Positions 4,995 through 27,613 are shown, numbered from the stretch's first letter. The stretch: 64,000 nucleotides of DNA from an uncultured Actinomycetes bacterium (GCA_963832225.1 CAWHTI010000002.1:298-64297), one strand, 5' to 3'. The notes: generated by a model not told the origin, from the letters alone. A program made the numbers and translations.

Positions 4995-5138
4995 CTCCAT
5001 CATCGCCGCGAGTCCATCGAGCGAATTTCTGAACCATAAACGACACTAGAATGATGATTTTGCTAGTGTCCTTATCGAAGCCGAAGTTCGCTCTGAAGAT
5101 GCTGCGAAGTAAGGTGAACTTCGGCTTCGGGACACTAG
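4995..5138. repeat. Nested-palindrome intergenic repeat, left copy, truncated at the junction; inverted relative to 15848-16014
   Basis: 5063-5138 (ctagtgtcc..ggacactag) is a 76-nt hairpin, preceded by a 13-nt AT-rich spacer and the distal arm of a second hairpin (..gcgaatttctgaaccataaacgacactag). It aligns with the reverse complement of 15848-16014 but lacks about the first 27 nt. Confidence 0.85.
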
Positions 5139-5198
5139 CCTCGCGCATCAACAACGAGGTGCCCGTGTCCACGGGCCATAACATTCAGGGAGCGGCCG

Positions 5199-6248
5199 AT
5201 GGTTGCCTCAAGCGTCGTGGTGCCGAAGAGCGGCCTTTATGCCGAGCCGCGCGCAGACTGGCTTGCGTCGTACAGTGAGGAGGTCATCGATCCCGCGCGC
5301 CGCATCATCGACGCGCATCATCACCTCTGGGACCGCCAGGGCGGCCGCTACCTGCTGGAGGAGCTGACGGACGATATCGCCAGCGGCCACAACATCGTCG
5401 CCACCGTCTATGTCGATTGCCGCTCGATGTATCGCGCGAACGGACCCGAGGCGTTCAAGCCGGTCGGTGAGGTCGAGTTCGCCAACGGCGTTGCGGCGCA
5501 GAGCGCGAGCGGCGGCTACGGCAAATGCGCGGTCAACGCGGCGATCGTCAGCCACGTCAACCTGCAGCTTGGCGACGACGCAAAGCCGGTGCTGGAGGCG
5601 CAGATCAAGGCGGGCAATGGCCGCTATCGCGGCATCCGCCACTCATCGGCCTGGGACGCGAGATCCGGCCGTGGCCGGCGCCTATGCGGCGCGGCCGAAG
5701 GGGCTGCTTGCCGATCCGCAGTTCCGAAAGGGTTTTGCCTGTCTCGGTCCGCTCGGGCTGACGTTCGACGCCTGGCTGTTTCATCCGCAGATTCCGGAGC
5801 TCGCCGATATTGCCCGCGCGTTTCCGAACCAGCGCATCGTCATGGACCATTGCGGCGGCCCGGCAGGGCTTGGCGTCTACGCGGACGTCGCGACGAGATC
5901 TTCAAGACCTGGAAGGCCTCGGTCGAGGACATCGCCAAATGTCCGAACGTCGTCGTCAAGCTCGGCGGGCTGGCGATGATGCTGCTGGGCTATGATTTCC
6001 ACACGCGGCCGAAGCCGGTGTCGTCGGAAGAGCTGGCGAAGGCATGGAAGCCTTACATGGAGACCTGCATCGCCGCGTTCGGCCCGAACCGCTGCATGTT
6101 CGAGAGCAACTTTCCGCCGGACAAGGGCCAGTGCAGCTATCAGGTGATCTGGAATGCGCTGAAGCGCATTGCTGCGCCCTATAGCGAGGCCGAGAAGAAC
6201 CGCATGTTTGAAGGGACGGCCGCGGAGGTCTACAAGATCAGCCTTTAG
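5199..6248 (+). pseudogene. Amidohydrolase-2 family metal-dependent hydrolase, two frame hops
   Basis: Pieces are IIDAHHHLWDRQGGRYLLEEL..NIVATVYVDC..RYRGIRHSSAWD, then (other frame) PAVAGAYAARPKGLLADPQFRKGFACLGPLGLTFDAWLFHPQIPELADIARAFPNQRIVMDHCGGP, then back to FKTWKASVEDIAKCPNVVVKLGG..CMFESNFPPDKG. Confidence 0.8.
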
Positions 6249-6285
6249 CGGATGCGCATCCAACCGGCTGAGCGGAGGACGAGTC

Positions 6286-6690
6286 ATGGCAGACAAGACA
6301 CCACTGGCGCCGGCGCTCGTCAACGAGTTCGTCGGCAAGGCGCATGGCGATCTCGACCGCGTGCGTGAGCTGCTCGGGCAGCATCCCGCGCTCGTCAACG
6401 CGGCCTGGGACTGGGGCGACGGCGACTGGGAGACCGGGCTTGGCGCGGCCGCTCATGTCGGGCCGGCGCGACATCGCGCTCCATCTCATCGAGAACGGCG
6501 CGCGCATGGACATCTTCGCCGCCGCGATGCTCGGCCATCTCGAGATCGTCCGCGCCATGATCGAGGCGGTTCCGGCAGCGCGCGGCAGTGGCGCGGCCCG
6601 CACGGCATTCCGCTCCTGACACATGCGGAGGCGGGCGGACCTGCGGCTGCGGCCGTCGTGGATTATCTGCGCGCCAAAGCCGGCGCCTGA
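6286..6690 (+). pseudogene. Ankyrin-repeat protein, two frame hops
   Basis: Pieces are MADKTPLAPALVNEFVGKAHGDLDRVRELLGQHPALVNA..TGLGAAAHVG, then RRDIALHLIENGARMDIFAAAMLGHLEIVRAMIE in another frame, then PHGIPLLTHAEAGG..VVDYLRAKAGA*. Confidence 0.6.
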
Positions 6691-7526
6691 TGGGGATGAC
6701 GATGAACGTTTTGACCAACGCGGTCACCAAAGAATATGCCGACGGCAAGTTGCTGCAGTCGATCGGCGACGGCATCGGCGATCCTGACCTTCAACAATCC
6801 GGAAAGGCTCAACGCGATCTCGGTGGAGATCGCCGCGGGGCTTGCCGAAGCGCTGACGGCGATGAAGGACGATCCCGCCGTGCGCGTGCTGATTCTGACG
6901 GGCGCGGGCGAAAAGGCCTTCATCTCGGGCGGCGACATCAGCCAGTTCGACAAGACCCGGCCGAATGCGGAGGTCGCGGCAAAATCGGCGGAAAAATTTC
7001 GCGAGCGGCAGGCGCTGCTCGCCAATTTTCCAAAGCCGACGATCTCGGCGATCCGCGGCTATTGCCTCGGCGGCGGCCTGGGCGTCGCGCTCAACACGGA
7101 TATGCGCATTGCCGCGCACGGCAGCAGGTTCGGCATTCCGGCCGCGCGGCTCGGCATCGCCTATGGTTTCGACGGCCTGCAGCGGCTGATGTCGCTGGTC
7201 GGCCCGTCGCGGGCGCGGCTGATCCTCTTCACCGGCAACGCGTTTTAGTGCCGAGGAGGCGCTGAGCTTCGGCCTGATCGACAAGCTCGTGGCGCCGGAG
7301 GAGCTCTGGCCCGAAACGCTGGCGATCGCAAGGCAGATTTCCGAGAACGCGCCGCTGGCGATTTCGGCGGCGAAGATCACGATCGGCGAAATCCTGAAGG
7401 ATCACGACAGGCGCAACATGCAGGCGATCGCCGACATCGCGACGACAGTGCATGGACAGCGAGGATTTTCGCGAAGGCCGGCGCGCATTCATGGAAAAGC
7501 GCACGCCGAAATTCGTCGGCCGCTAG
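6690..7526 (+). pseudogene. Enoyl-CoA hydratase/isomerase (crotonase) family, at least 3 frame hops
   Basis: Pieces are ILTFNNPERLNAISVEIAAGLAEAL..VRVLILTGAGEKAFISGGDISQF..AIRGYCLGGGLGVALNTDMRIAA..FGIPAARLGI, then AEEALSFGLIDKLV..APLAISAAK, then SEDFREGRRAFMEKRTPKFVGR* in successive frames. Confidence 0.8.
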
Positions 7527-7549
7527 TCATCCTGAACGGATCAACAGCA

Positions 7550-9900
7550 ATGCAGGACATCAAGTACGGCCGCGTGGTGCACCGGCGCGAGGATTTTCGC
7601 CTGACGCAGGGCAGGGGCATTTATGCGGCCGACGTGTCGCTCGACGGCATGACCCATGCGGTGTTCGTGCGCTCGCCGCATGCGCATGCGCGGATCAAGG
7701 CGATCGATACCGCGGCGGCCCGCAAGGCGGCCGACGTGGTGGCAGTGTTTACCGCGGCCGACCTCGACGCCGATGGCGTGCGCGATTGCAGCCTGCCGGC
7801 CAAAATGAAGCGGCCGGGCGGCGACCGAGGCGACCGAGACGCCGCGCCCGCCGCTGGTGCGCGACTGCGTGCGTTTCCTCGGCGAGCCGGTGGCGATGGT
7901 GGTCGCGAAATCGCTCAGCGCCGCGCGCGACGCCGCCGAACTGGTGGATGTGCGACTACGAGCCGCTGCCGGCGGTCGCGACGATTGCCGAGGCCACCGC
8001 AAAAGGCGCGACCGCGGTGTGGGATGCGACGGCCAGACAACGTCGCCTATCACTGGAGCAAGGGCGACGCGGCGGAGATCGAGCAGGCGCTGCAGGCCTC
8101 GCATCACGTCGTCCGCCTGACTTTCACGTCGAGCCGCGTCTCGGCGAACCCGATGGAGCCGCGCAGCGCCGTCGGCCCACGTGGACAAGGACGGCCGGCC
8201 GACGCTGCATGTCAGCTACCAGAGCCCGCACAATCTGCGCGATGCGCTGGCCACCATGTTCGGCATGGAGAAGAACGCGCTGCGGGTGGTCGCGACCGAC
8301 GTCGGCGGCTCGTTCGGCATGAAGTCCGGCCTGGTGCGCGAAGAGTTGATCGTGTTCTGGGCCGCGCGGAAGCTGAAGCGGCCGGTGAAGTGGGTCGCGG
8401 ACCGCTCGGAAGCCTTCCTGTCCGACGAGCATGCGCGCGACATCGAGATCAACGCGGCGCTCGGCCTCGACAAGCGCGGGCATTTCACCGCGCTGCGCGT
8501 CAGCTACCGCGTCAACATCGGCGCATACCTTTCGGCGCGCTCCGCTTCGCCGATCAACAATTTCGGCGGCATCGCCGGCGTCTATCGCACGCCGAAAATC
8601 CTCGGCGAGGCCACCGGCATCTTCACGAACACCTCGCCGACGGCGCCTTATCGCGGCGCCGGCCGGCCCGATGCGACCTACGCCATCGAGCGGCTGATCG
8701 ATGTCGCGGCGCAGGAGATGGACATCGATCCGTTCGAGCTGCGCAAGCGCAACCTGATCCCGCCCGACGGCGATGCCCTACAAGACGCCGTTCGTCTTCA
8801 CCTATGACTGCGGCGATTTCGTCAAGGGCATGGAGAAGGCCGCCGAGCTCGCGCGCTACAAGGAGTTTGCCGGCGCGACGCAAGGAGGCGAAGAAGCGCG
8901 GCAAGCTGCGCGGCATCGGCATCGCCAACCCGATCGAGGTCGCGTCCGGCCCGTTCGCGCGGCCGAGCACCGATTTCGCCTGGATCGAGGCGAAGGCCGA
9001 CGGCAGCGTCCGTGCTGCGCGCCGGCGCCATGTCGGTCGGGCAGGGGCTGGAGACGTCGCTCTCCGACATCGTCGCCCAGCGGCTCAACGTGCCGATCGA
9101 GAAGATCGACTACGTCTATGGCGACACCGACCAGGTGCCGCGCGGCAAGGGCAATGGCGGCTCGGCGGCGCTGACGCTGGGCGGCTCGGCGATCTCGCTC
9201 GGCGTCGACAAGCTGCTGGAGCAGGGCAAGCAGCTCGCCGCCAACCGGCTCGAGGCGTCGCGTCGCCGACATCGAGTTCGCCGAAGGCCGATTTCGCATC
9301 GCCGGCACCGACCGCTCGCTGTCGCTGGCCGACGTCGCGGCGCTGACCGGCAACGACGAGGGCCTGACCGGCGTCGGCGAGTTCAAGATGTCCCAGCCGA
9401 CCTATCCGAACGGCTGCCACATCTGCGAGGTGGAGATCGATCCGGACACCGGCGTGGTCGAGGTGATCGGCTACGTCGGCGTCGAGGATGTCGGCCGCGT
9501 GCTGCATCCGGCGTTCGTCGAGGGCCAGATCCACGGCGGCGTCGCCCAGGGCATGGGCCAGGTGCTGCAGGAAGCGATCGTGCACGAAGCCGGCACGGCG
9601 CAGCTGCTGACCGGCTCGTTCATGGATTACGCGATGCCGCGCGCGAACGACCTGCCGAACTTCGTCTGCGCCAATGTCGAGGTGCCGACGGCGCTCAATC
9701 CGCTCGGCGTGAAGGGCGTCGGCGAGGCCGGCACGGTGGGCGCGATGGCCGCGACCATGAACGCGATCTGCAACGCGCTGGCCAGCGTCGGCATCCGCCA
9801 TTTCGACATGCCGGCGACGCCGGAGCGGGTGTGGCAGGCGATCCAGCGAACGCCGTGCCGCCGAATAGACGGCAGCAGCCCGGTCGGCTTAACCAGCTGA
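7550..9900 (+). pseudogene. Xanthine dehydrogenase/aldehyde oxidase-family molybdopterin-binding large subunit (CoxL-like), many frame hops
   Basis: Pieces are MQDIKYGRVVHRREDFRLTQGRGIYAADVSLDGMTHAVFVRSPHAHARIKAID..RVSANPMEPRSAVG..ATDVGGSFGMKSG..YRGAGRPDATYAIERLID..GAMSVGQGLETS..GKGNGGSAAL..EVEIDPDTGVVEV..GQIHGGVAQGMGQVL..NPLGVKGVGEAGTVGA. These are scattered over all three plus frames. Confidence 0.85.
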
Positions 9901-10055
9901 ATTGTTGCGATAAAATTGACAGCGCCGGCCTCTTGCGGTTTTTCCCGGTCTTGAGGACAATGCGTCCGGCGGCCCGGCTGATTTGGGCCGGGGGGCCGCC
10001 ATCGGACGATGGCGTGGTATCTCTCAAGTCGTTCTTGTTCAGGCTGGACCTTTCG

Positions 10056-11808
10056 ATGCAGTGCCCGCGATGTCAGGCCAAAAGTCCTGAGGGCAAGAAA
10101 TTTTGCGGCGATTGCGGCGCGCCGCTGGCGGTGCTGCCGGCGCAGGCCGGTGGAGATTCCGGCCGACATCGCCGGCGCCCGCGATGCGGTGCTGCGTGCG
10201 GTCGCCGAGCAGCGCCAGGCCGAGCAGGACTATCGCAAGATCTTCGAAGGCTCGGTCGACGGCATCTACGTCACCACGCCCGAGGGCGGGTGCTCAACGC
10301 CAATCCGGCGCTCGCGCGCATGATGGGCTACGACTCGCCGCAGCAATTGATCGACGGCGTCTCCGACATCTGCGCACTCGATCTACGTCGATGCCGCCGC
10401 GCGCGAGGAGTATCTGCTGCGCATGCAGCGCGACGGCATGGTGCGCGAGTACGAGTACCAGGTGCGCCAGCGCGACGGCAACATCCTGTGGCTGTCCGAC
10501 AGCGCCACCGCGGTGCGCGACGAGAACGGCCGCGTGGTGCGTCATGAAGGTACGGTGCGCGACATCACCGATCAGCGCCGCGCCGAGCAGGCGCTTGGCC
10601 GAAAGCCGCCGCCAGCTGCAGACCGTGATCGACACCGTGCCGGCGGTGATCAACGTCAAGGACACGAAGTTCCGCTACCTGTTGATGAACAAGTACATGG
10701 CGCGCATCTTCGACGTCGATCCCGAGGAGGCGGTGGGGCGCACCACCAACGAGATCATGGCGCGCTATGGCGCCTCGAAGGAAACCTCGGGCGACCAGCA
10801 GGTGCTCGCCACCGGCGAGGAGCTCGGCTTCTACGAGGAGGCCTATTTCGATTCCGCGCACCGCCTGCGGCACTGGATGGCCAACAAGGTGCCGGTGAAG
10901 AACGCCGAGGGCAAGATCGAGTACATCGTCACCGTCGCGCTCGACATCACCGACCGCAAGCGCAGCGAGCAGGAGACGCAGCGGGCGCGCGATTCCGCCG
11001 AGAACGCGCTGAAGAACCTGCGCGCGACCCAGAATTCGCTGATCGAGTCCGAGAAGCTCGCGGCGCTCGGCCGGCTGGTCGCCGGCGTCGCGCATGAGAT
11101 CAACAATCCGGTCGGCATCGGCGTGACGGTCGCGACCGCCCTGCAGCGGCGCTGCAGGCTGTTTGCGGAAGAGGTCGCGCGCGGCGAGCTGAAGCGCTCG
11201 ACGCCTCAACGCGTTCATCCAGGCGAACATCGATGCCGCAAGCCAACTCGTGTCGAACCTCAACCGCGCCGCCGAGCTGATCCAGTCGTTCAAGCAGGTG
11301 GCGGTCGATCGCAACGTGCCGGACCGCCGCGCAGTTCAACCTCGCCGACATCACCGAGCAGATCGTCACCAGCCTGCGGCCCGGCCTGCGCTCGCGCAAC
11401 CTGACGCTGACGGTCGATTGCGCGCCGGACCTCGACATGAACAGCTATCCCGGTCCGTACGGCCAGGTGGTCACCAACCTGTTCCTGAACTCGGTCGCGC
11501 ACGCGTTTCCGACCAATGCGGCGGGCGAGCTCATCATCACCGCGCGCGAAGCCGGCGCTGATCATGTGGAGATCGTCTATTCCGACAACGGCGTCGGCAT
11601 GACCGACGAGGTGAGGCGGCACGCGTTCGATCCGTTCTTCACCACGCGCCGCGACAAGGGCGGCACGGGCCTCGGCCTCAACATCGTGCACAACATCATC
11701 ATCAACCGTCTCGGTGGACGCATCGATCTCGCTTCGGAGGTCGGCAAGGGAACGCGATTCCACATCGTGCTGCCGCGCGTCGCACCGCTGGAGCGCGCAG
11801 CGGAATAG
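10056..11808 (+). pseudogene. Cytoplasmic sensor histidine kinase: N-terminal zinc ribbon, two PAS domains, HisKA, HATPase_c; frameshifted
   Basis: Pieces are [24 protein letters not shown]; PAS-like [20 protein letters not shown] and [16 protein letters not shown]; H-box [16 protein letters not shown]; ATPase part YGQVVTNLFLNSVAHAF..DNGVGM..FDPFFTTR..GTGLGLNIV. No transmembrane segment is seen. Confidence 0.8.
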
Positions 11809-12115
11809 ATCGTCGCCATTTTCTGCTTCTGAACAGCTCCAATTTCCATCGGTTCATGCGGGGCCGCGAAATGCGACGCAATGCACCTGTTTCAAGCGCT
11901 GCCTGCAACACATTGCGGCATCCGACTTGGTGACATAAATCACGGTGTTTACATTTGCCGTCGATAGATTATCTAGCGCCTGAAACAGGCTAATCCGTTG
12001 AACTTTCACAGCGTCGCGAACGACAAATGCGTGCATGAATTCCGAACTGACTACCGCGCATCGTGGCCCGCAAGGCAAATCTTCTCCTGACGATCATCCT
12101 GACAAAACGAAACGC

Positions 12116-12891
12116 ATGAGCGCCTTCAACAAAGAGCAAGTTCTTTCCGTGCGTCACTGGACGGACTCGCTGTTCTCCTTCACCACCACCCGCGATCCGG
12201 GGTTCCGGTTCCTCAATGGCCAGTTCACCATGATGGGCCTCGAGGTCAACGGCCGGCCGCTGCTGCGCGCCTATTCGCTGGCGAGCGCCAATCACGAGGA
12301 GCAGCTGGAATTCTTCTCGATCAAGGTTGCCGAACGGTCCGCTGACCTCGCTGCTGCAGAAGATCAAGGAAGGCGACACCATCCTGGTCGGCCGCAAGGC
12401 CACCGGCACGCTGATCACCGACAACCTGCTCGCCGGCTCGCGGCTGCTGCTGCTGTCGACCGGCACCGGGCTCGCGCCGTTCGCGAGCCTGATCAAGGAT
12501 CCGGACGTGTACGAGCGCTTCGAGAAGATCGTGCTGGTGCACGGCTGCCGTCAGGTCTCCGAGCTCGCCTATGGCGAACGGCTCGTCGCCAAGTCTCTCG
12601 GACGACGAGTACTTCGGCCCGGTGCTGAAGGAGAAGCTCGTCTACTATCCGACCGTCACCCGCGAGCCGTTCCGCAATCGCGGCCGCATCACCGACCTGA
12701 TCACCACCGACCGGTTGTTCGCCGACACGGATCTGCCGTCGCTCAACCTCGAGACCGACCGCATCATGATGTGCGGCAGCCCGAGCATGCTGGAAGACCT
12801 GCGCGTGCTTCTCGAGGAGCGCGGCTTCAGCGAGGGCAATCACAGCCACCCCGGTCACTTCGTGATCGAGAAGGCCTTCGTCGAGCGCTGA
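12116..12891 (+). pseudogene. fpr: Ferredoxin-NADP+ reductase (Fpr type), two frame hops
   Basis: Pieces are MSAFNKEQVLSVRHWTDSLFSFTTTRDPGFRFLNGQFTMMGLEVNGRPLLRAYSLAS..LEFFSIKV / NGPLTSLLQKIKEGDTILVG..LLLLSTGTGLAPFASLIKDP / YYPTVTREPF..RIMMCGSPSMLEDL..HFVIEKAFVER*. Confidence 0.85.
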
Positions 12892-12904
12892 GCTTCGACG
12901 CAAA

Positions 12905-12945
12905 GAAAAACTCCCGCGCAGCGATGCGCGGGAGTTTTCTTTTGT
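12905..12945. terminator. Bidirectional rho-independent terminator between convergent fpr and the binding-protein gene
   Basis: The sequence aaaaactcccgcgc-agcgat-gcgcgggagttttctttt has a 9-bp GC stem flanked by an A-tract and a T-tract. Confidence 0.8.
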
Positions 12946-12957
12946 CGGTATCCAGAT

Positions 12958-14105
12958 CTACTTCACCAGGACGTACTTGCCATCCTTGACCGTGAGCAGG
13001 ATGCGCGCACGCTCGTCGACGCCAAAACGGTCCTTCTCCGTAAAATTGTAGACGCCCTGGCTCGCGGCGATCTCCTTCTCCGAATTGAGCGCCGTGCGTA
13101 GCGCCTCGCGGAATCGGCCGTGCCGGGCTTGCCGCTCTTCAGCGCGATCGGCACGACGCGCTTCATCACCTCGAACGCATCGTACATGTGCGCGCCGAAC
13201 TGGTTGCGCGAGTTCTCGCCGTACTTCTTCTCGTACAGCGCATTCAGCTCCAGTCCGGGCTTCTTGGTCAGCGCCTTGTCGTCCTGGCCTTCCGGCGCCA
13301 TCACCGGGCCGGACGCCATGATCACGCCTTCGGCGGCCTTGCCGGCGATGCGGATGAAGTCGTAGGTCGCAGCCCCATGCGTCTGGTAGATCAGACCGGC
13401 GTAGCCGCGCTCGCGCAGCGCGGCCTGCGGCAGCGCTGCGCCTGTGCCCGATGCGCCGATCAGGATCGCGTCGGGTTTTGCCGCCACGAGCTTCAGCACC
13501 TGGCCCGTCACCGACGTGTCAGGCCGCGCATAACGTTCCTCGGCGACCACCGTCATGTTCATTGGCCCGGTCTGGGTTTTCAGGTCGTTCAGCCAGAGGT
13601 CGCCGTACGAATCCGAAAAGCCGATGTAGCCGATCGTCTTCACGTTGTTCTTCTTCATGTGCTCGTACAGCGCCTTGCCGACGATCGGCACGGGCTGCGG
13701 CATCACCACTGTCCATTTTTCACGGGCCGGCGTGAACGGCATCGGCGCAAGCGCGAAGTGCGGCACCGCCGCCTCGTTGGCGACGGTCGAGACGGCGATC
13801 GTCGGCGGCGTGGTCGAGGAGCCGACCAGGATGTCGGCCCTGGATTCGGTCAGGAGGCGTCGCGCATTGGTGGTGGCTGTGGTCGGATCGCCGGCGTCGT
13901 CCAGCAGCACGGTCTTGATCTTCACCCCGCCGATCTCGGCCGGCACGAACTCGACGACGTTGCGCTCGGGGATGCCAAGTGCGGCGGCGGGTCCGGTGGT
14001 GGAGATGGTGATGCCGACGACGAGCTCCTGCGCGGCTGCCGGTGCAGAAAGCGCGGTCAGCCCGAGCAGCGCCGCTACGAGCGGTCCCGACAATCTGGAC
14101 GTCAT
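12958..14105 (-). pseudogene. LivJ-type (branched-chain amino acid family) ABC substrate-binding protein, one frame hop near ~13120
   Basis: Signal peptide MTSRLSGPLVAALLGLTALSAPAAAQE is followed by LVVGITISTTGPAAALGIPERN..LLDDAGDPTTATTNARRL..ILVGSSTTPPT..KTIGYIGFSDSYG. The C-terminus FREALRTALNSEKEIAASQGVYNFTEKDRFGVDERARILLTVKDGKYVLVK* is in another frame. Confidence 0.8.
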
Positions 14106-14187
14106 TGATCGTTTCCTCTTTTGGTCATGCTTGTTGTACCCAAGCCTGTCTAGCGGGGGCATAATCGGTGTCAATCGGCGGTTGGTC

Positions 14188-15710: not shown

Positions 15711-15847
15711 ATCAGCCTCCTCATGCCTGCCGTTCCGGCGTTGGGCCAAGACTAGCAGATTTCGCCTCGGCGAGGCAGGGCAACGGTGTTGCGGCGCGCG
15801 GAACAAGCCGCGTGCGTTGAAAGGCGGATTGTGGTCGAATGGCGCAG

Positions 15848-16014
15848 CTAGTGTCCCGAATCCGAAGTTCGCCATACTTTGCAGCGCGCTCAGAGCGAAC
15901 TTCGGATTCGATAAGGACACTAGCAAATTATAATTCTAGTGTCGTTTATGGATCAGAAATTCGCACGATGAACTCGCGGAAACGATGGTGCGAATTTCTG
16001 ATCCACGACACTAG
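15848..16014. repeat. Nested-palindrome intergenic repeat, full copy (two ~76-79-nt hairpins bounded by CTAGTGTC/GACACTAG)
   Basis: Hairpin A is 15848-15923, a spacer caaattataatt follows, and hairpin B is 15936-16014. Its reverse complement matches 4995-5138. It lies between the divergent amidohydrolase (start 15710) and the VOC gene (start 16041). Confidence 0.85.
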
Positions 16015-16040
16015 TGCAGAATTACGACGAGGAATGAGAC

Positions 16041-16775: not shown

Positions 16776-17972
16776 ATCATGAAGCTCACCACGCGAGCTC
16801 GAGGATCTCCATCACCTGGGCCGTCGGTCGTCACCGGCTTCGGGTTGGTCTTCATCGGCGGGTCGCGCAGCGATTTCGCGGCGATGTCGTCGAGCTGCTC
16901 GCGCTTGATGCCGACGTCGCGCAGCCGCGTCGGCACGCCGAGCTTTGTCGCAAAGGCAAGGATTGCGTCGGCGAGCTTGTCGCCGGCAACGCCGATCACG
17001 TCGCCCGCATGGGCCTGTCGCGCGGCGTTCGCATCGTAGTTCCAGCGCAGCACCGAGGGCAGGCAGACGCCGGTGGTGTGGCCGTGCGGCACGCCGTAGC
17101 CGCCGATCACGTGACCGATGGCATGGCTGGCGCCGACCGGCACGCCGCTGGTGCCGCCGAAGATCGACAGCCACATGCCGAACTGGCAGTCCATCCGGAG
17201 TTTCAGATGTCGTTGGCCCGCCGAGCTGCGGCAGCGAGGTGTAGAGCAGTTTCAGCGCCGACACCGAGGCGGCATCCGCGAGCGGCGGCGCTTCAACGCG
17301 CAAAGCCGTTCCACGGCGTGGTCGACCGCCTTCATGCCGGTCGCGAGCAGGAGCGGGAGCGGCGAAGCCAGCGTCGCGGCCGGATCGAGCACCACCACCT
17401 GCGGCACGAACAGCGGGTTCGCGAACGATTCCTTCACCAGCCGCGCGGGTCGGTGACGCCGGCATACCAGGTGAATTCGGCGGCGGAAAACATCGTCGGC
17501 ACCGCCAGCATGCGGATGCGGTCCCGGCATCGTCCGGATAGTGGCTCGGGTCGCCCTGCCGTCCGCCGCGATAGGGGTCCATCTCGCTTCGCGTCCGTTC
17601 AGCCCGTGCCACAGGCACAGCAGCATCGCCTTGGTCGCGTCGACCACCGAGCCGCCGCCGACCGCGACCAGCAGATCGGCTTTGGCCTCGCGCGCCGCTG
17701 GCGGCGCCCTCGATCACGCAACTGCGCGGGGTGTGCGCGGTGATGCCGGAATAGAGGCCGACGAATTTGTCGCCGAGCGCCCGGCCGATTTCGCGCGGCA
17801 GCGCGTTGTCGCCGGCAAGCGAGCCGCTGGTGGTGATGAAGATGCGCGACTTGCCGAGCTTTTGCGCCTCCTCGACGATCACCTCGGCCGCCGGCCGGCC
17901 GTGCACGACGCGCTCCTGCAGGAAATTGCGCTGGATGCCGGGTGTCAGCGATTGTGCCGGTTTGTCGAGCAT
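16772..17972 (-). pseudogene. Iron-containing alcohol dehydrogenase family (maleylacetate reductase-like), frameshifted
   Basis: Pieces are MLDKPAQSLTPGIQRNFLQERVVHGRPAAEVIVEEAQKLGKSRIFITTSGS..; VDATKAMLL..VVVLDPAATLASP..TGMKAVDHAVE; and C-terminal HAIGHVIGGYGVPHGHTTGVCLPSVLRWN. These lie in three minus frames. Confidence 0.7.
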
Positions 17973-18056
17973 GACCTGTTCTCTTTCATCGGTTGCCGGC
18001 GATGATGCAGCAAAGCCTGCAAGCGCGCCAGTTTGGCCGGGCAGGGGAGCCAAACG

Positions 18057-18083
18057 AAAACGCCCGGCCTGCGCCGGGCGTTT
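18057..18083 (-). terminator. Rho-independent terminator after the DppA-type binding-protein gene
   Basis: The sequence aaaacgcccggc-ctgc-gccgggcgttt has an 8-bp GC stem. On the minus strand it is followed by a T-tract. Confidence 0.75.
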
Positions 18084-18107
18084 CCAATTGTTCGAGCGGA
18101 AGGCCGC

Positions 18108-19809
18108 TCAGTAACCCATCTTCTTCTTCAGGTCCTGGTCGATCCAGAGGCGGGAATAGATCGGCCACGGGCGCACGGCGCCTGCGGTGTGCTCGCCATT
18201 GTAATTCTTCACCCACGGCCACCACGCGGTGAACGCCTTTGCCGTCGGCATCCAGATGTGCGGCGCCTTGTCGAGGATCTCGCGCGTCAGCTCGCGGATG
18301 GCGGCCTTGCGCTTGTCCTCGTCCGGCTCCTGCTGCATCGCCCGCACCTTCTTGTCGAACTCCGGATCGTTGTACATCGACGGATTCCAGAGCTGTCCGC
18401 CGACAAAATTCTTGAAGATGGCGAGCTGCGGATTGCTGTGGCCGATGTTCATGAAGTAGCCGGCCGCGTGCGTCTTGGTGCTCATCGCCGAGAGGAACGC
18501 CGCGTATTCCAGCGGCTGGATCTCGATCTTGACGCCGACCTGCTCAAGGTAGGCGGCGACCAGCGGCAGCAGGTCCAGATGCTGACGAGTTGGCGGGCGC
18601 GACCTGCACCTTGAAGGTGAAGCCGTTCGGATAGCCTGCCTCGGCCAGCAGCTTCTTGGCCTTCGCCGGGTCGTACGTGAACAGCTCCTTCACCGAGGCC
18701 GGCATGGCGCTCAACGGCTCATAGTAGCCCTCGTAGGCCGGATGCATCGGATAGGCGAGCAGCTCGGCGTTGCCGTTGTAGAAGGCCTTGATGATCTCTT
18801 CCTTGTTCACCGCCATGTTGAGCGCGCGGCGGACGCGGACGTCGTCGAACGGCTTCTGGTCGTTACGGAGCACCATCATGGTGCCGTAGAAGCTGACGCG
18901 CGGCAGCCACTTGATCTGAGGGTTCGTCTTCAGCTGGTCCATGTCCTGCCAGCTGAGCGTCTCCAGGATATCGATCTTGCCGGTGCGGAAGGCGGTGACG
19001 CGCGTGGAGTCGTCGCGGATGATGCGATAGACCACCTTGTCGACGAACGGCAGCTTGAACTCGGCTTCGCCGATCTTCTCCTTGTCCCAGTAGTCTGGCC
19101 GCTTCGTGTAGGTATGCGAGTTGCCGGGCACGTATTCGGTGAGCGCGAACGGGCCGGTGCCGGTCGCGTTCTTCCAGTCGGCTGCGCCGGCCGTCGCCAC
19201 TTCCTTCGGCATGATCGACGAGTTGTAGCCGTAGCCGATCCAGAACGGCCAGTCGGAGACGAAGTCCTTCATGTAGTAGACGACGGTGTACTTGTCGCGC
19301 GCCTCGACCTTCGTGATCTCGGTGAGGATGCCGGGCGGCCGCTTCGGGCTCTCGGCGCGATAAGTGTAGTTCCAGACGACGTCATCGGCGGTGAGCTCGC
19401 GCGCCTCCATCACGCCGGCCTTGGCCGGAAACATGATGCCCTTCTTCAGCCTGATGACGACCGCCAGCGGATCCTTCTGCACTTCCCAGCTTTCGGCGAG
19501 CTCGCCCTTGATCGCATCGGTCGGGATCCAGGCGTCGGCATGGAAGGCGTATTTGCCGCCATTGCGCGTGCCCTTGGAGAGGTCGGCGGTCAGCAGCATC
19601 TCATACATGCCGCCGGCGTCATGATTGATCTTCCAGGGCCAGTCCTTGTGGTCCCAGCTCAGCGCCGACAGGGTCGCGAAGATCGTGGCGACCTCCAGCG
19701 TCCCGCCATATTGCGGTTTCTCGGCGTTCTGGGCGAATGCATTCCCCGAGAGCAGCAAGGCTGCGCCGAATGCGCCGGCCTTCAACCAGCGATCCATTTT
19801 GAGCGACAT
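18108..19809 (-). pseudogene. ABC substrate-binding protein, family 5 (peptide/nickel, DppA-like), frame hop near ~18540-18600
   Basis: Signal peptide MSLKMDRWLKAGAFGAALLLSGNAFAQN is followed by PQYGGTLEVATIF..WDHKDWPWK..FVDKVVYRIIRDDSTRVTAFRTGKIDI. The C-terminal 125 aa are in ORF 18108..18485. The RBS is acGGAGGa. Confidence 0.8.
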
Positions 19810-20055
19810 GGAAATCCTCCGTAGCGTGATGCGGGGCGGCCGCTCTTGATCGGCGGCATCATCGGGTGCGAAGTCTAGGCCGATGCGTTGCATCGCGGAA
19901 GACCTCGCATGGGGTTCGATCGACCATTTTCAACGTCGCGAGGCAGGTGCGACAAAACGGAAGCTCAAGTCCGTTCCGCGGTGCGAAAGGCATCTTGCGA
20001 AGCAAGGGCCGTCATTGCATCCTTCACACCTCGCAGCAGCCAAGAAGGAACAGCG

Positions 20056-21409
20056 ATGAACGTTGTCGAAAACCTGATCGCCGACAAGGCGCTGGATGAA
20101 GCTGTGCGCGATGCGCGGACGGCCTATGTGGCGCGCAATCCGGCGAGCGCGAAGCAGTACGCTGCGGCGTCCGAAGTCATGCCTGGCGGCAACACGCGCA
20201 CGGTGCTGTTCTACGATCCGTTCCCGCTGACGATCCTGCGCGGCGAGGGCTGCGAGGTTTTTGACGCCGACGGCCACCGCTATTTCGATTTCATGGGCGA
20301 ATACACCGCGGGCCTTGCGGGCCATTCCAACCCGGTGATTGCGGAAGCGATCAAGCATGCGGTTGACAACGGTCTCAGCCTCTCTGGCCACACCCGCGTC
20401 GAATCCGAGTTCGCCGAAATCGTCGCGCGGCGCTTTCCGGCGATGGAGCTGCTGCGCTTCACCAACTCCGGCACCGAGGCGACGCTGCTGGCGCTGACGC
20501 TGGCGCGCATCACGACGGGCCGAAAGAAGGTGATGGCGTTCGACGGCGGCTATCACGGCTCCGTCTTCGTGTTCAAGGATGCGGTCAACCAGGTCAACGT
20601 GCCGTTCGACTGGGTGTTCGCGCCGTACAACGACGCAGCCGCCGCCGCAAAACTGATCGCGCAGCACAAGGACGAACTCGCGGCGGTGATCGTCGAGCCG
20701 ATGCAGGGCTCTGGCGGCTGCATCCCGGCCGAGCAGGAGTTTCTGTCGACGCTGCGCAAGGAGACCGAGAAGGCCGGTGCGCTGCTGGTGTTCGACGAGG
20801 TCATGACTTCGCGCCTTGCGCCGGGCGGCCTGCAGACGCGCTATGGCATCCGTCCCGACCTGATGACGCTCGGAAAATATGTCGGCTGGCGGCATGTCGT
20901 TCGGCGCCTTCGGCGGCCGGGCAGACCTGATGCAGCGGTTCGATCCGCGGCAGGCCGGTGCGCTTGGTCACGCGGGCACGTTCAACAACAACGTGCTCAC
21001 CATGTCGGCGGGCATCGCCGCGATGACCAGGGTCGTTACGCAGGAGAGGCTCGATGCGGTCAATGCCCGCGGCGATGCGCTGCGCACGCGGCTGCAGGGG
21101 CTTTGCCGTGAGCACAGTGCCCCGATTTGCGTCACTGGCATCGGCTCTCTGTTCACGATTCACGGTGTGGCGGGTCCGGTCCGCTCCAATGCGGACATCA
21201 CCGCACAGGACCAGCGGATCAAGGAACTGATGTTCTTCGATCTGCTGGAGCAGGGCATCTATCTGGCCCGGCGCGGCATGGCGGCGCTGTCGTTTGAGAT
21301 CAACGATGTCGCCTGCGATGCTTTTGCCGACGCATTCGACCAATTTCTCAAGCGACGCGCAGCGTTGTTTGCTACAGACGCGACCAGCCTACGCCGCGCC
21401 CGCGGCTAG
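20056..21409 (+). pseudogene. Class-III aminotransferase (glutamate-1-semialdehyde aminomutase-like), one frame hop near ~20885
   Basis: Pieces are MPGGNTRTVLFYDPFPL..DADGHRYFDFMGEYTAGLAGHSNPVI..FTNSGTEATLLAL..FDGGYHGS..LVFDEVMTSRLAPGG..DLMTLGKYVG then GMSFGAFGG..HAGTFNNNVLTMSAG. Confidence 0.8.
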
Positions 21410-21450
21410 TTCGCGTCCAATAAACGCGCAAAAATTGCAGGAGAAGAACA

Positions 21451-22458
21451 ATGCGCTCCGATCGCCGACCCATGTCCAATCCAAGCCGCCGTGCCGTGCT
21501 CGCCGGCGGCGCTGCCGCGCTGTCGCTGCCGTTCGTCGGGCGCGCATCGGCCCAGGCGCCGTGGCCGAGCCGTGTCGTCAAGGTGGTCGTGCCGTTCGCG
21601 CCGGGCGGCACCACCGACATCCTCGGCCGGCTGATGGCGCAAAAGCTGTCGGAGGAGTACGGCCAGCAGTTCATCGTCGAGAACAAGGCCGGCGCCGGCG
21701 GCAACATCGGCGCTGATGCGGTCGCAAAGTCCGATCCCGACGGCTACAACTTCGTCATCGGCACGCCGGGGCCGCACGTCATCAACCAGTATATCTACAA
21801 GAACCAGCCATTCGACGGCACGAAGGATATCGTGCCGGTCATCGTCATCGCCCGCGTGCCGAACCTGATCTCGGTCAATCCGGAGGTGAAGGCCAAGACC
21901 CTGCAGGAGTTCATCGCGCTGGCGAAAGCCAACCCGGGCAAACTCTCCTATGCCTCGCCGGGCAACGGCAGCACCGGGCATGTGGCGACCGAGCTGTTGA
22001 AGTCGATGGCGGGCATCGATCTCGTGCACGTCCCGTATCGCGGCAGCGCGCCAGCGCTGACCGACGTGATGGGTGGCCGGGTCGAGATGTCGCTCGACAA
22101 TCTGCCGGCGGTGCAGCCGTTCGTGGAGGGCGGCAAGCTGCGTCCGCTCGCGGTGACCACCGCAAAACGCTGGCCGGAGCTGCCGGACGTGCCGACCGTC
22201 GCAGAGGCGGGCGTGCCCGGCTACGAGGCGTCGTCCTGGTTCACGATTGCGGCGCCTGCGAAGACGCCGGCCGACATCATCGCAAAAGTGAACAAGAGCG
22301 TGAACACCTACATGGCCGACAAGGACATGATCGCGAAAATGCGCAAGCTCGGCGCCGATCCGGTCGGCGGCTCGCCCGATGACATGGCGAAGCTGATGGC
22401 GGACGAGAACGTGAAGTGGAAGAAGGCGATCGAGTTCGCAGGGCTGAAGCCGGAGTAG
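21451..22458 (+). CDS. Bug-family (TctC-like) tripartite tricarboxylate transporter substrate-binding protein
   Basis: Intact 335-aa ORF with Tat-like signal SRRAVLAGGAAALSLPFVGRASAQ, then VVPFAPGGTTDILGRLMAQKL..ENKAGAGGNIGA..PDGYNFVIG..YASPGNGSTGH..VHVPYRGSAPALTDV. Confidence 0.85.
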   Translation: MRSDRRPMSNPSRRAVLAGGAAALSLPFVGRASAQAPWPSRVVKVVVPFAPGGTTDILGRLMAQKLSEEYGQQFIVENKAGAGGNIGADAVAKSDPDGYNFVIGTPGPHVINQYIYKNQPFDGTKDIVPVIVIARVPNLISVNPEVKAKTLQEFIALAKANPGKLSYASPGNGSTGHVATELLKSMAGIDLVHVPYRGSAPALTDVMGGRVEMSLDNLPAVQPFVEGGKLRPLAVTTAKRWPELPDVPTVAEAGVPGYEASSWFTIAAPAKTPADIIAKVNKSVNTYMADKDMIAKMRKLGADPVGGSPDDMAKLMADENVKWKKAIEFAGLKPE

Positions 22459-22467
22459 GCGATAGCC

Positions 22468-22560
22468 TGTAGCCCGGATGAAGCGAAGCGAAATCCGGGG
22501 CTGAGTCCCGCGATCGATCGCTGATCAGCCCGGATTGCGCTGCGCTTCATCCGGGCTACA
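22468..22560. repeat. REP-like 32-nt inverted repeat (Bradyrhizobiaceae-type palindrome) between convergent genes
   Basis: Arm tgtagcccggatgaagcgaagcgaaatccggg (22468-22499) pairs with arm cccggattgcgctgcgcttcatccgggctaca (22529-22560). There are 2 mismatches and a 29-nt loop. One frame reads the familiar PDCAALHPGY pseudo-peptide. Confidence 0.8.
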
Positions 22561-22562
22561 AA

Positions 22563-24053
22563 CTACTTCGGAATCCTCGCCTTCAATTCCGGAATGAACG
22601 GCAGCATGGTCATGTCGAGGCACGCCGGGCCCGGCGCGTCGACGTCGATGATCTCGGTGCAGATCGCGTCGAACGCCGCGCGAAAATGGTTCTTCGCCTT
22701 CACGAACAGCAACTGCTCCTTCTCGATCTCGATGCCGTGCAGGTGAAAGAACGCCGGATCGTTGGCCGGCGCCACGTGCTCGGTGACGATGATGCGGATG
22801 TTGCCTGACTGCAGCAGCGCGGTGCGGCCGCAGCGCAGCTCGATGCCAGTCTCCATCGGGCCGATGTTGCGGAACACGCCGTCCGTCAGCCTGACGACCG
22901 TCGCCTCAACCGCGACCGGCGCGCCATAATCCTTCATCTCCTTGCCGCCGAGCGTGATGGTGCCGAGGTTCTTGCCCACGCCCGCGCGCCAGGCCGCGTC
23001 GACGACGGCCGGATCGGTGAAAGCCGCGAAGACCACCGGCCGGTTGGGCTTTGCCGCGACCAGCGCGCGGAACATTTCCGGCGTGTCGTTGATGCCGCCG
23101 GAATAAGGATTGTCGCCGGGGTCAGTCACCGCAAGCAGGCCGGGCTTGTTGGAGGCAAGCGCACGGGCGACGCCGGCCGCAGCCGTCGGCAGCGAGATCA
23201 TGAATTCCGGCTGCTTCCGCTTGAGCTCGTCGCCGATCCTGCGCGCGATCTGCTCCGCCTTCGCAGCGTCGCCATCGGTCACGACAAGCGCGCAGCCGCC
23301 GGTGCCCGGCGTGTTGGCGAAGGGAAAGCCGCCGAACACGGTCGCTTCCAGCACGCCCGGCTCCCTGCGCTGCTCGGCCGCGAATTCTTCCAGATCGCGC
23401 ATCGGCCCTTCCTTGGTGCGCATGTTGAAGCTCGGCAGCAGCAAACCCTCATTGAGGATGCGGCAGACCGGTTTGATCTCGCCGGCCACCGTTCGCTCCA
23501 GCACGCTCAGCACGCGCCAGGCGGTCTCGCGCATGTCGATGTGCGGGTAGGTGCGGTAGACGCTGCCTGTCGTCAGGTAGTTTGACAGCTCGTCGGCGAG
23601 GTTGCCGTGAATGTCGAAGCTGGCGCCGATCGGGACGATCGGTTGAATCTTCCGGATTTCCTGCAAAAGCTCGACCTCAGGATCTTCGCGCTTCGTCGTG
23701 ACCCCGGCTCCGTGCAGTGATAGGTAGATCGCGTCGAACTTTTGGTCCTTGAGGTCCGCCAGGGTCTCCTGGAGGAACGCGGTGAACACCTCGTCGTCGA
23801 TCTGGCCGGCAGGCGAAGCCGACGCACAGCGGAACACCTCCACATCCCAATCCGGATACTTTTCGGCGAACTCGATGACGGCGCGGAGCTCGCTTTCCTG
23901 GGCGGTATGGTTCAGGGCGTCCTGGCCGCGGCGCCATTCCCGCCGCGCGAACGCGGCGCGATCGGCGAGCAGGGGGCTGAACGAGTTGCCCTCATACCAG
24001 AAGCGGGCGACAGCGAGGCGGCGGCGTTTTTCGAGTCCGTTCTTTTCGACCAT
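22563..24053 (-). CDS. M81-family metallopeptidase (MlrC-like)
   Basis: Intact ORF: RLAVARFWYEGNSFSP..DAIYLSLHGAGVT..ASFDIHGNL..YRTYPHIDM..GGFPFANTPGTG..VTDPGDNPYSGG..VKAKNHFRAAF. The start is taken as MVEKNG (24053). Confidence 0.8.
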   Translation of the reverse strand: MVEKNGLEKRRRLAVARFWYEGNSFSPLLADRAAFARREWRRGQDALNHTAQESELRAVIEFAEKYPDWDVEVFRCASASPAGQIDDEVFTAFLQETLADLKDQKFDAIYLSLHGAGVTTKREDPEVELLQEIRKIQPIVPIGASFDIHGNLADELSNYLTTGSVYRTYPHIDMRETAWRVLSVLERTVAGEIKPVCRILNEGLLLPSFNMRTKEGPMRDLEEFAAEQRREPGVLEATVFGGFPFANTPGTGGCALVVTDGDAAKAEQIARRIGDELKRKQPEFMISLPTAAAGVARALASNKPGLLAVTDPGDNPYSGGINDTPEMFRALVAAKPNRPVVFAAFTDPAVVDAAWRAGVGKNLGTITLGGKEMKDYGAPVAVEATVVRLTDGVFRNIGPMETGIELRCGRTALLQSGNIRIIVTEHVAPANDPAFFHLHGIEIEKEQLLFVKAKNHFRAAFDAICTEIIDVDAPGPACLDMTMLPFIPELKARIPK

Positions 24054-24173
24054 TGGCGGGTTTCTTAAATCCTCGTTTGAAGGCAGAATGTGTTTCCGCA
24101 GAATGCCTTGCATGGCTGTTCTTCAACGCCGTCGATAGCACGCCGCAAACGCCAAAATCAGAAAGAAGACGAG

Positions 24174-25082
24174 ATGACACGCATTCTTCCACGGCAGATC
24201 GGGCTCGAGCTTCCGGTCGCCGTCGGCGGCAAGGGCATCGAGTTGTTCGATTCGACGGGCAAGGCGTACATCGACGCCTCGGGTGGCGCTGCGGTGTCGT
24301 GTCTCGGTCACGGCCATCCGGACGTGAACGCCGCGCTGCATGCGCAGGTCGACCAACTCGCCTACACCCATTCGAGCTTCTTCACGACAGAAGTCGCCGA
24401 AGCGCCTCGCCGACACGCTGATCGCGGACGCGCCGAAGGGGCTGTCGCACGTCTATTTCGTCAGCGGCGGTTCGGAGGCCGTCGAAGCCTCGCTGAAGAT
24501 GGCGCGGCAGCATTTCGTCGAGATCGGCCAGCCGCAGCGGACGAAGGTGATCGCGCGCCGGCAGAGCTATCACGGCAACACGCTGGGAGCGCTGGCGACC
24601 GGCGGCAACGAGCTGAGGCGGACCCAGTTCAAGCCGCTGCTGATCGAAACGGCGCATGCCGATCCGTGCTTTGCCTACCGCTTCAAGGAGCCGGGCGAGA
24701 GCGACGAGGCGTATGCGGTGCGGGCCGCGCAATCGCTCGAGGACAAGATCCTGGAGCTCGGCCCTGACAAGGTGATCGCGTTCGTGGCCGAGACCGTGGT
24801 CGGCGCCACGTCCGGAGCGGTGCCGCCGGTCGCCGACTACTTCAAGCGCATCCGCGCGATCTGCGACCGCTACGGCGTGCTGTTGATCCTCGACGAGGTG
24901 ATGAGCGGCATGGGCCGCACCGGCACGCTGCATGCCTGCGAGCAGGAGGGCATTGCGCCGGACCTGATCACCATCGCCAAGGGACTCGGCGGCGGTTATC
25001 AGCCGATCGGCGCGGTGTTGATCGGGCAAAAGATATTCGATGCCTTCGACAAGGGCTCAAAGGTGTTCCAGCATGGGCAGAC
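24174..25082 (+). pseudogene. Class-III aminotransferase, 3'-truncated at the mosaic junction; one frame hop near ~24400
   Basis: Pieces are [43 protein letters not shown] / [74 protein letters not shown]. Homology then stops with no stop codon. Confidence 0.8.
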
Positions 25083-26591: not shown

Positions 26592-26697
26592 GGCAAGCAT
26601 CTTCCCACCGGCCGCGATATGTGACAGCCGAGCGTGCGTGGGCACGGATCGGCGACGCCGGCGACGAGGCCCGGGGATCCGCCGCCGCGGGTGTACC

Positions 26698-27303: not shown

Positions 27304-27547
27304 ATGTCAGCAGGCCCTGCAGGACATCGAGCGCTTCCTGGACGGCGAGATGGACCAGCCGGAGCGGGGTCTGATCGACGAGCACCTGCAAGGGTGCACC
27401 CCCTGCATGGAGCGCGCCGACTTCAAGCGGTCCGTGAAGGAGCTGATCGCCTCGAGATGCGGATGCGACGACCTCCCCTCGGGCCTCAGGGAGCGGATCT
27501 CCGGATTGCTCCAGGGCTCGCCCCGAACCGCCCCGCGCGACGCCTGA
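27293..27547 (+). CDS. rsrA: Zinc-binding anti-sigma factor (RsrA/RshA, ZAS family)
   Basis: The protein reads [52 protein letters not shown] and carries the H-x3-C-x2-C ZAS motif. Its start overlaps the sigma-gene stop. Confidence 0.85.
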
Positions 27548-27613
27548 TCCCGCCTCGCGCCGGCGACCGAACCTCCGCACCGTCCGCGTCGAAAGGGGCG
27601 TCGAGGGGAGGTC

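Follow-up and report, generated by a model that had tools for sequence, protein, structure and literature searches.

What is a 20-kb stretch of Bradyrhizobium-type DNA doing between two segments of high-GC actinobacterial DNA? Taken at face value, the window (the whole 64,000-nucleotide stretch that was analysed, recorded as an uncultured Actinomycetes bacterium) would be a striking cross-phylum transfer from Alphaproteobacteria into Actinomycetota, and an uncultured lineage would seem to have an ftsH cut short and a disrupted ebo operon. Judging from the sequence, we consider it about 95% probable that the window is not one natural DNA and that it consists of three unrelated genomic fragments, set end to end via two blunt junctions. 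The first would be an actinomycete ebo locus, the second a 20,085-bp stretch of a Bradyrhizobium-group chromosome, and the third an uncultured Actinomycetota locus.

Composition and relatives of the three segments

The middle of the window is less GC-rich than its flanks, as had been claimed earlier: GC is 64.9% at 4995-25082, against 74.8% at 1-4994 and 71.2% at 25083-64000. When composition was checked by 5-kb windows, the dinucleotide delta* between the middle and the right flank was at least 151 for every 5-kb window of the middle, while the maximum was 140 within the right flank, which is compositionally homogeneous, and 57 within the middle. Taken as wholes, the middle and the right flank differ by a delta* of 182 (182-203 for the middle against both flanks), and their tetranucleotide usage correlates at 0.66 (0.50-0.66 against both flanks) compared with a mean of 0.92 within the right flank. 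The compositional gap between the middle and the right flank is far beyond chance. The AT-rich tract pointed out at 11810-12115 has a GC content of 51%. A described contrast in codon endings held in part: GC3 is high in right-flank genes (0.92-0.94), but it is still 0.86-0.92 in the genes of the middle, and the compositional contrast comes mainly from intergenic DNA and from first and second codon positions.

Matched to relatives separately, the left part goes to actinomycete ebo loci, the middle only to the Bradyrhizobium/Afipia/Rhodopseudomonas group and the right part to uncultured Actinomycetota, in keeping with the mosaic that the earlier note had proposed. All 80 genome matches to the middle come from this alphaproteobacterial group and none reaches beyond 5171-25083; across 84 loci, Bradyrhizobium-group homology is confined to 4994/5171-25083. 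The middle fragment (4995..25079) is thus chromosomal DNA of the Bradyrhizobium group (Nitrobacteraceae), and its gene order is that of Bradyrhizobium sp. LHD-71 (L007) over 5171-19823 and also that of three further relatives (L001, L002 and L008) up to 25083. The Pfam families in the 17 of its ORFs that were scanned are metabolic, transport and signalling only, and they bear out the gene list given before: Amidohydro_2, ECH, a CoxL-type molybdenum enzyme, a PAS kinase, an Fpr-type reductase, LivJ-type and SBP_bac_5 proteins, two Aminotran_3 proteins, TctC and MlrC. The window's MlrC protein has no exact match in the protein/contig collection, and relatives were used instead. The Bradyrhizobium-type REP palindrome between TctC and MlrC, placed before at 22468-22560, is present at 22463..22565, with 37-nt arms that are 89% complementary. 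The middle is unameliorated: it has kept its REP elements as well as its compositional distance from the right flank, and it shares 80-92% DNA identity with Bradyrhizobium-group contigs, in alignments that all stop at the borders.

The left fragment (1..4994), actinomycete DNA that is dense in 1-nt insertion errors, carries PKD/DUF1080-type and cupredoxin-like genes and then eboF-eboE-eboB on the minus strand, which confirms the ebo genes recognised previously. Over 1568-4994 it shares 81.9-82.8% nucleotide identity and a conserved ebo gene order with Logan SRR7783847_541 (L005) and Dactylosporangium sp. AC04546 (L006). The best named EboB matches are from Micromonosporaceae, but the ebo DNA says little about taxonomy, as its similarity to Nonomuraea, Streptomyces and Dactylosporangium is nearly the same (83-85%). 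The right fragment (25080..64000) belongs to an uncultured Actinomycetota lineage, with 94.4% nucleotide identity to one relative (L004) and 86% to another (L003) and a gene order conserved over 25080-38746. It runs from ftsH through sigH-rsrA-PIG-L, whiB, bpa and tRNA-Arg to argS-lysA-hom-thrC-thrB, and Pfam recovers the gene types reported before (ECF sigma and zf-HC2 anti-sigma factors, PIG-L, WhiB, MDMPI_N, BPA, ArgS, Hom, ThrC and ThrB). The best 120 matches of its FtsH are all Actinomycetota MAG proteins; this suggests that the right flank belongs to none of the named actinomycete genera, which does not settle the left one.

Do the two flanks at least belong together? Their delta* of 114 lies below the maximum within the right flank, and their tetranucleotide correlation of 0.81 lies above the within-right minimum of 0.78, a distance at the far end of the range seen within the right flank itself but not beyond it, so that their composition is just compatible with one genome. 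In relatives (L003, L004, L005 and L006), the flanks adjoin neither each other nor Bradyrhizobium DNA, and they are two unrelated loci, possibly from two organisms. A single actinobacterial genome on both sides of the foreign piece is therefore possible but not established.

The junctions and the features they interrupt

Base-level alignment places the left junction, which is blunt, at 4994|4995 (4994..4995), identically to the earlier note. At this point, relatives run on into GATGTGCGGGTCGAAGATGCGCAT, the start of eboB, whereas the window enters a Bradyrhizobium-type repeat. The eboB gene (TatD-family hydrolase, minus strand, 4120..4994 with an approximate 3' coordinate) has lost its first 8 codons together with every ebo gene upstream: homology stops 24 nt before the start codon in both L005 and L006, where eboA, AP_endonuc_2, UbiA and inositol-phosphate synthase genes are the native upstream neighbours, and eboC is also among the lost genes of the upstream operon. 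About 11 frameshifts interrupt eboB; once reconstructed, its protein shares 88-90% identity with TatD/EboB proteins of 283 aa. The matches of the left flank in the plasmid database (10 records, from Nonomuraea and Streptomyces) all stop at 4994. On the other side lies a REP-like composite intergenic repeat (4995..5155), the left arm of whose first palindrome has been removed by the junction; the copy in L001, at 9776-9923, has the full palindrome, GGTTCAGAAATTCGC...GCGAATTTCTGAACC. A second, complete copy in inverted orientation (15831..15991) pairs with the first at 84-87%. An IS or composite transposon was considered for this pair, the sole long inverted repeat pair (4994-5155 with 15831-15991), and rejected, as it lies wholly inside the middle, is REP-like, occurs also in L001 and comes with no transposase domain in the ORFs scanned.

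The right junction is likewise blunt. The range of 25080-25083 given earlier had the location right, and the base-level placement is 25079|25080 (25079..25080): Bradyrhizobium-type alignments end at 25083 and actinobacterial ones begin at 25080, but the 3-4 nt over which the two seem to overlap, (G)ACC, come after a mismatch and probably match by chance. To the left of the join, a class-III aminotransferase (24174..25079, plus strand) has lost about 145 codons from its 3' end, and its Pfam Aminotran_3 match ends at profile position 285 of 403. The intact aminotransferase of L002, with 448 aa, runs 438 nt past the end of the window's homology, and in L001 and L002 their own native neighbours follow. 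To the right, ftsH (25080..26591, minus strand) is also 3'-truncated, with 504 of about 665 codons present and some 160 C-terminal residues lost, while what is left of the protein is 96-98% identical to FtsH proteins of 642-665 aa (P0121 and P0123). The ftsH of L004 extends 477 nt past the join, and GT2, cNMP-binding protein and peptidase M1 genes lie downstream of the complete gene in L003 and L004.

Four features are thus cut exactly at the joins (eboB, the aminotransferase, ftsH and one REP palindrome), each at an arbitrary point within it, and otherwise intact features are interrupted on both sides; that both borders cut genes, eboB at the left and the aminotransferase and ftsH at the right, agrees with the earlier note. 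The switch of lineage is base-exact, with the same end points, 4994 and 25080/25083, recurring with L001-L008 and the 10 plasmid-database records. For none of the three source strains did a public copy turn up, and the native continuations were read from relatives 80-94% identical in DNA. None of the related genomes has the window's adjacency, and the relatives of each flank carry their own native genes onward. No empty site was found either, the flanks not being contiguous in L003 or L004, where ftsH is complete, or in L005 or L006, where eboA and the operon precede eboB. In exact k-mer scans, the 38-mer across the right junction was absent from genome, metagenome and viral contig collections, and a 40-mer just inside the middle fragment was absent from metagenome contigs.

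Gene transfer as an improbable rival explanation

Like a genomic island or integrative element, the middle is a block of about 20 kb that is foreign to its flanks in GC, oligonucleotide usage and gene content. Unlike one, it has no recombinase, att sites or direct repeats, tRNA target or mobility genes, its flanks are not adjacent in relatives, both the block ends and the flanks are cut inside genes, and its cargo is ordinary chromosomal DNA in the donor's native gene order. The 17 middle ORFs searched with Pfam, which take in part of the short or badly frameshifted ones, contain no integrase, transposase, recombinase or other mobility domain, and the gene calls of the matching regions in L001 and L002 include no mobility genes. 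No direct repeat or target-site duplication brackets the middle within the window, and no tRNA lies near the borders, the sole tRNA of the window being Arg(CCG) at 53844-53917, 28 kb away. The ORF, tRNA and repeat searches are in this respect in line with the claim that nothing of the kind marks either border.

A genuine and very recent horizontal transfer would require that an actinobacterium took up 20 kb of Bradyrhizobium chromosome by end-joining-type illegitimate recombination, with a deletion or rearrangement that brought the ebo and ftsH loci alongside. If this were true, the window would be a snapshot of raw cross-phylum DNA capture before selection or amelioration, with ftsH and the ebo operon broken. 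A fresh acquisition would be expected to look like this, a compositionally sharp island with foreign genes, both flanks are actinobacterial and could just share one genome by composition, and illegitimate recombination does not need repeats. Since the flanks are contiguous in no relative, however, insertion alone cannot explain the structure. FtsH, normally core housekeeping, would lack one third of the protease domain, and the head of the ebo operon would be gone; no integrase, transposase, conjugation gene, tRNA or target-site duplication accompanies the insert, and the insert itself is ordinary chromosomal metabolism in Bradyrhizobium gene order with its REP elements intact, in a sequence of demonstrably low technical quality. 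We regard transfer as extremely improbable. The separate lineages, base-exact ends, truncations and absent mobility signature instead support the reading, shared by the earlier note, that the window is very probably a chimera or artificial splice that arose in sequencing, assembly or data handling, and its Bradyrhizobium-type middle not an island acquired by gene transfer between bacteria.

Insertion errors and the origin of the joins

The many frameshifts in the window are single-base insertion errors; such abundant 1-nt insertion frameshifts had been absent from the earlier reading. Compared with L006, the left flank has 64 insertions of lengths other than 3n and 12 deletions, and +1 and -1 phase steps stand at 16:1 in 4995-12954 and at 29:10 in 47356-57366. 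Frameshifts were tracked by a 7-state codon-phase Viterbi path, which replaced a greedy GC3-based ORF picker that was too crude given the frameshifts. A tblastn frame-switch count with ORFs from relatives found 25-37 kb clean and 10-13 kb frameshifted; the in-frame pieces of the left flank were too short for this count. The errors come in blocks and affect each of the three parts, a pattern like that of long reads that were poorly polished; that the block borders do not track the fragment borders counts against the composite reading. These borders (at about 12.95, 47.35 and 57.37 kb) were considered as further junctions and rejected: the gene order of L007 crosses 12.9 kb, and potA and lysA read through the other two. 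The same kind of error in all three parts points to one long-read data set, and a single error-prone, unevenly polished set could be their common source.

Could a repeat or conserved sequence common to different organisms have led an assembler to join their contigs or reads? Mixed-community long-read assemblies do yield chimeric contigs, public genomes are widely affected by chimerism (PMC8201837), for which tools such as GUNC (PMC8201837) and Porechop (PMC12631790) screen, and a repeat element lies directly at the left join. Joins by assemblers, however, require overlaps of tens to thousands of bases, and the sides of either join share only 1-4 chance-matching bases, which is no usable microhomology. 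A REP-mediated misjoin at the left border was likewise rejected, the repeat at 4995-5155 being on the Bradyrhizobium side only, with no counterpart in the ebo loci of the actinomycete side. Because no sequence is common to both sides at either join, we consider such an overlap-driven misjoin very improbable; blunt joins would rather suggest that fragments were ligated into a chimera or that records were simply concatenated.

The window resembles chimeric long reads and contigs in its abrupt switch of lineage within one sequence, in the truncation of genes at the switch points, in the lack of a biological junction signature (neither filler nor a recombination signature was found at the joins) and in its apparent source, long-read-type data from a mixed community that still contain indel errors. 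Unlike the usual two-part chimera, it has two joins and three fragments within 64 kb. Separate DNA fragments may have been ligated while the long-read library was made, and sequencing or assembly may then have treated them as a single molecule, or separate sequence records may have been pasted together without a spacer. The window also differs from chimeric reads and contigs in that a search for PacBio and ONT adapter remnants found none, and its joins may stem from record concatenation. As adapter remnants are absent at the joins, a ligation chimera and simple concatenation cannot be told apart, and tube, software and record pasting are each open candidates.

Bradyrhizobium DNA is a reagent and laboratory contaminant of sequencing data sets, familiar from the 'kitome' literature, and a Bradyrhizobium-group fragment inside other organisms' data resembles such contamination. 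Most of the nearest relatives of the middle and right parts, however, are from environmental metagenome assemblies, so that a co-resident soil bacterium explains the fragment equally well, and nothing in the window shows a reagent origin. The sources of all three parts are typical of one mixed, soil-type community.

The value of these observations lies mainly in quality control, and the record, or the cutting of the window from it, deserves to be flagged for re-examination. Base-exact homology end points against independent relatives, together with truncated features on both sides of a join, provide a recipe for such cases. Once the composite is recognised, downstream analyses are spared spurious calls of horizontal transfer, spurious pseudogenes and wrong gene neighbourhoods.

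Three parts, actinobacterial and Bradyrhizobium-type

The earlier note described the window as a three-part mosaic, and contrasts in composition bear this out. GC content is 74.8% in 1-4994, 64.9% in 4995-25082 and 71.2% in 25083-64000. Tetranucleotide usage correlates at 0.87 between chunks of the middle and at 0.88 between chunks of the right flank, as against 0.59 for middle versus right and 0.47 for left versus middle. By Karlin-type dinucleotide distance (delta* x 1000), middle and right are 182 apart and left and middle 203 apart, whereas the largest distance of a 5-kb window from the remainder of its own part is 57 within the middle and 140 within the right flank, and every 5-kb window of the middle lies at least 151 from the right flank. 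In oligonucleotide usage the middle and both flanks are apart far beyond internal variation.

The left flank carries eboF-eboE-eboB on the minus strand. Once its frames are corrected, EboB shows 88-90% identity to TatD-family proteins, 283 aa long, from Dactylosporangium, Plantactinospora, Catellatospora and others. The DNA of this flank is 82-83% identical to two ebo operons, one from Dactylosporangium sp. AC04546 and one from a Logan contig, and 83-85% identical to Nonomuraea and to Streptomyces plasmids. The eboB/eboE stretch at 4000-4994 has copies on large Streptomyces plasmids (NZ_CP109028.1, NZ_CP108303.1, NZ_CP115301.1 and others; 83-84% DNA identity) and in Nonomuraea (85%), a distribution of similar sequences which suggests that the ebo operon may move between actinomycete orders.

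The middle is Bradyrhizobium-type DNA. For its MlrC/M81 peptidase the identity is 93% with a protein from an ENA metagenome contig and 86% with the counterpart in Bradyrhizobium sp. LHD-71. Scanning a genome collection with the LivJ-type binding protein gave 80 loci, every one of them in Bradyrhizobium, Afipia, Rhodopseudomonas or relatives, with LHD-71 at 91% and a Xanthobacteraceae MAG at 90% ranking highest. Collinear DNA joins 5171-19823 to LHD-71 at 77-86% identity and 18103-25083 to three other Bradyrhizobium-group relatives (L001, L002 and L008) at 80-92%. Pfam confirmed the genes read here from sequence, namely Amidohydro_2, ECH, a three-domain CoxL-type molybdoenzyme, a PAS/HATPase kinase, an Fpr-type reductase, Glyoxalase_3, SBP_bac_5, two Aminotran_3 genes, TctC and MlrC. 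A Bradyrhizobium-type REP palindrome lies at 22463-22565, and a composite REP-like intergenic element of ~160 bp at 4995-5155 has an inverted copy at 15831-15991 (84-87% identity). In L001, a 586-kb metagenome contig, this element occupies a different intergenic position (9776-9923). Two natural differences from the relatives were seen: the glyoxalase-like gene is separated from its neighbour by ~3 kb more DNA in LHD-71 (window 16769-16786 versus 7245-4226), and the window's single SBP_bac_5 gene (18103-19823) corresponds to a tandem pair of paralogues in L001 (17918-21376).

The right flank belongs to an uncultured Actinomycetota lineage. Proteins from ENA metagenome contigs match its FtsH fragment at 96-98% identity, and among the best 120 matches those with labels are "Actinomycetota/Actinobacteria bacterium" MAGs or soil metagenome records, apart from one MAG labelled Planctomycetaceae. 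Over 25080-38746 the window's arrangement of genes recurs in two uncultured Actinomycetota contigs, L003 (86% DNA identity) and L004 (94.4%): ftsH / ECF sigma, zf-HC2 anti-sigma, PIG-L, pyridoxal decarboxylase, peptidase S51, nth, whiB, GDPD, BNR-like, GNAT, MDMPI_N and UDG. WhiB, a mycothiol-type DinB domain and Bpa typify Actinomycetota, and Pfam found the genes that had been called actinobacterial (WhiB, MDMPI_N, BPA, ArgS, Hom, ThrC and ThrB).

Other features of this flank deserve mention. In three independent contigs of the lineage ftsH is divergent to the adjoining ECF sigma/zf-HC2 anti-sigma pair. Adjacent secreted BNR/sialidase-like paralogues of 444 and 495 aa (33303-34637 and 34768-36255) have a weak BNR_2 match as their sole Pfam hit, in the L004 orthologue. 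A single ORF at 57410-58093 runs from the LysA C-terminal end (GAYTYAMASTYNRVGRPAVV...) into a GNAT acetyltransferase domain with no intervening stop, either a real fusion or a stop lost by sequence error. The window's sole tRNA, tRNA-Arg(CCG) at 53844-53917 (minus), lies between pdxH and a response-regulator gene and is unrelated to the joins.

Do the two flanks come from one organism? Their distance (delta* 114, tetranucleotide r 0.81) lies at the very edge of the spread inside the right flank (maximum 140, minimum 0.78), yet within it. The ebo operon is unfit as a taxonomic marker because it is too conserved across actinomycete orders. The best 120 FtsH matches include no genus names, whereas many of the EboB matches are Micromonosporaceae, which hints at two source organisms. 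If that is so, the window would be a composite of three.

The joins at 4994|4995 and 25079|25080

In base-level alignment every actinomycete relative matches through base 4994 (...GTCATGTG) and then runs on with the reverse complement of ATG CGC ATC TTC GAC CCG CAC ATC, the first eight codons of eboB, where the window has a Bradyrhizobium-type repeat instead. The first palindrome of that repeat is without its left arm, which is GGTTCAGAAATTCGC in L001. The left join therefore cuts both eboB, 24 nt from its start, and a repeat that belongs to the other fragment. It also takes away eboA and the further upstream genes that the operon has in the Logan contig and in Dactylosporangium.

At the right join Bradyrhizobium-type relatives match as far as 25079 and actinobacterial relatives from 25080, exactly where the codon-phase Viterbi path switches strand and phase. 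BLAST extends the former match past one mismatch to 25083, and the three matching bases after it look like chance matches. The aminotransferase here is cut off at position 285 of a Pfam profile of 403, with 438 nt of L002 missing, and ftsH, converging on it from the opposite strand, lacks 477 nt of L004. As first proposed, then, both borders cut genes.

Base-level alignment of both joins shows that they are blunt, with neither filler nor usable microhomology at either; a search for adapter sequence found none. Blunt joins with no sequence in common do not fit template switching, nor do they fit an overlap-driven misassembly, which we consider very improbable.

Insertion errors in all three parts

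Frameshifts abound in the window, a feature absent from the earlier note. Aligned to Dactylosporangium sp. AC04546, 3.4 kb of the left flank shows 64 insertions and 12 deletions of length not a multiple of three, mostly single G or C and also outside homopolymers, and eboB needed ~11 frame corrections. Excess +1 phase steps on the Viterbi path, the signature of 1-nt insertions, mark 4995-12954 (+1 to -1, 16:1) and 47356-57366 (29:10), while 12955-47355 and 57367-64000 are balanced at gene-boundary level (~0.7-0.9 phase steps per kb). Insertion-dense blocks (1-12954 and 47356-57366) thus alternate with nearly clean ones; 25-37 kb is also clean by homology, since its alignment to L004 opens 7 gaps in 8 kb and tblastn matches stay in one frame. 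Split over frames are eboB, eboE, eboF, the CoxL-type gene, the PAS kinase, potA-D, pdxH, argS and lysA.

These blocks begin and end at points other than the joins, and their borders were rejected as additional junctions, as collinearity with LHD-71 and the reading of potA and lysA cross them. A predominance of insertions among indels typifies single-molecule long-read consensus that has not been fully polished. That all three fragments share this error type indicates one technical origin.

Most probably a non-biological composite

Domain searches of the scanned ORFs and of matching regions of relatives found no integrase, transposase or conjugation domains, no direct repeats bracket the middle, and no tRNA lies near the joins (the only one is 28 kb away), in agreement with the earlier note. 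Compositional deviation is the one of four defining properties of a genomic island that the middle shows, and it has none of those of a transposon. In relatives ftsH is followed 3' by a glycosyltransferase, a cNMP-binding protein and a peptidase M1, with neither ebo genes nor Bradyrhizobium DNA. The flanks are not adjacent there and are therefore two unrelated loci, a structure that simple insertion cannot yield. Genuine horizontal transfer of the middle would require illegitimate recombination plus rearrangement, inactivation of both ftsH and the ebo operon, and zero amelioration, all in sequence already known as technically poor; we hold it to be highly improbable.

The alignments show that lineage changes at an exact base, that four features are truncated and that the flanks are not neighbours in relatives; signatures of mobile elements are missing, and technical quality is low. 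The best-supported reading of this is that the window is a non-biological composite and its three-part structure not a real biological feature. The earlier interpretation, a chimera or artificial splice and not an island, is supported. Three fragments from one mixed-community data set would have been joined blunt end to blunt end; from blunt joins without shared sequence we infer ligation of separate fragments in library preparation or concatenation of separate records. The exact junction k-mer was absent from genome, metagenome and viral contig collections, and a middle-internal k-mer from metagenome contigs.

Genome chimerism is a recognised quality problem (GUNC, PMC8201837), and trimming of chimeric reads is part of long-read workflows (PMC12631790). 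The window is an instance of that problem, and its value is as a quality-control flag.
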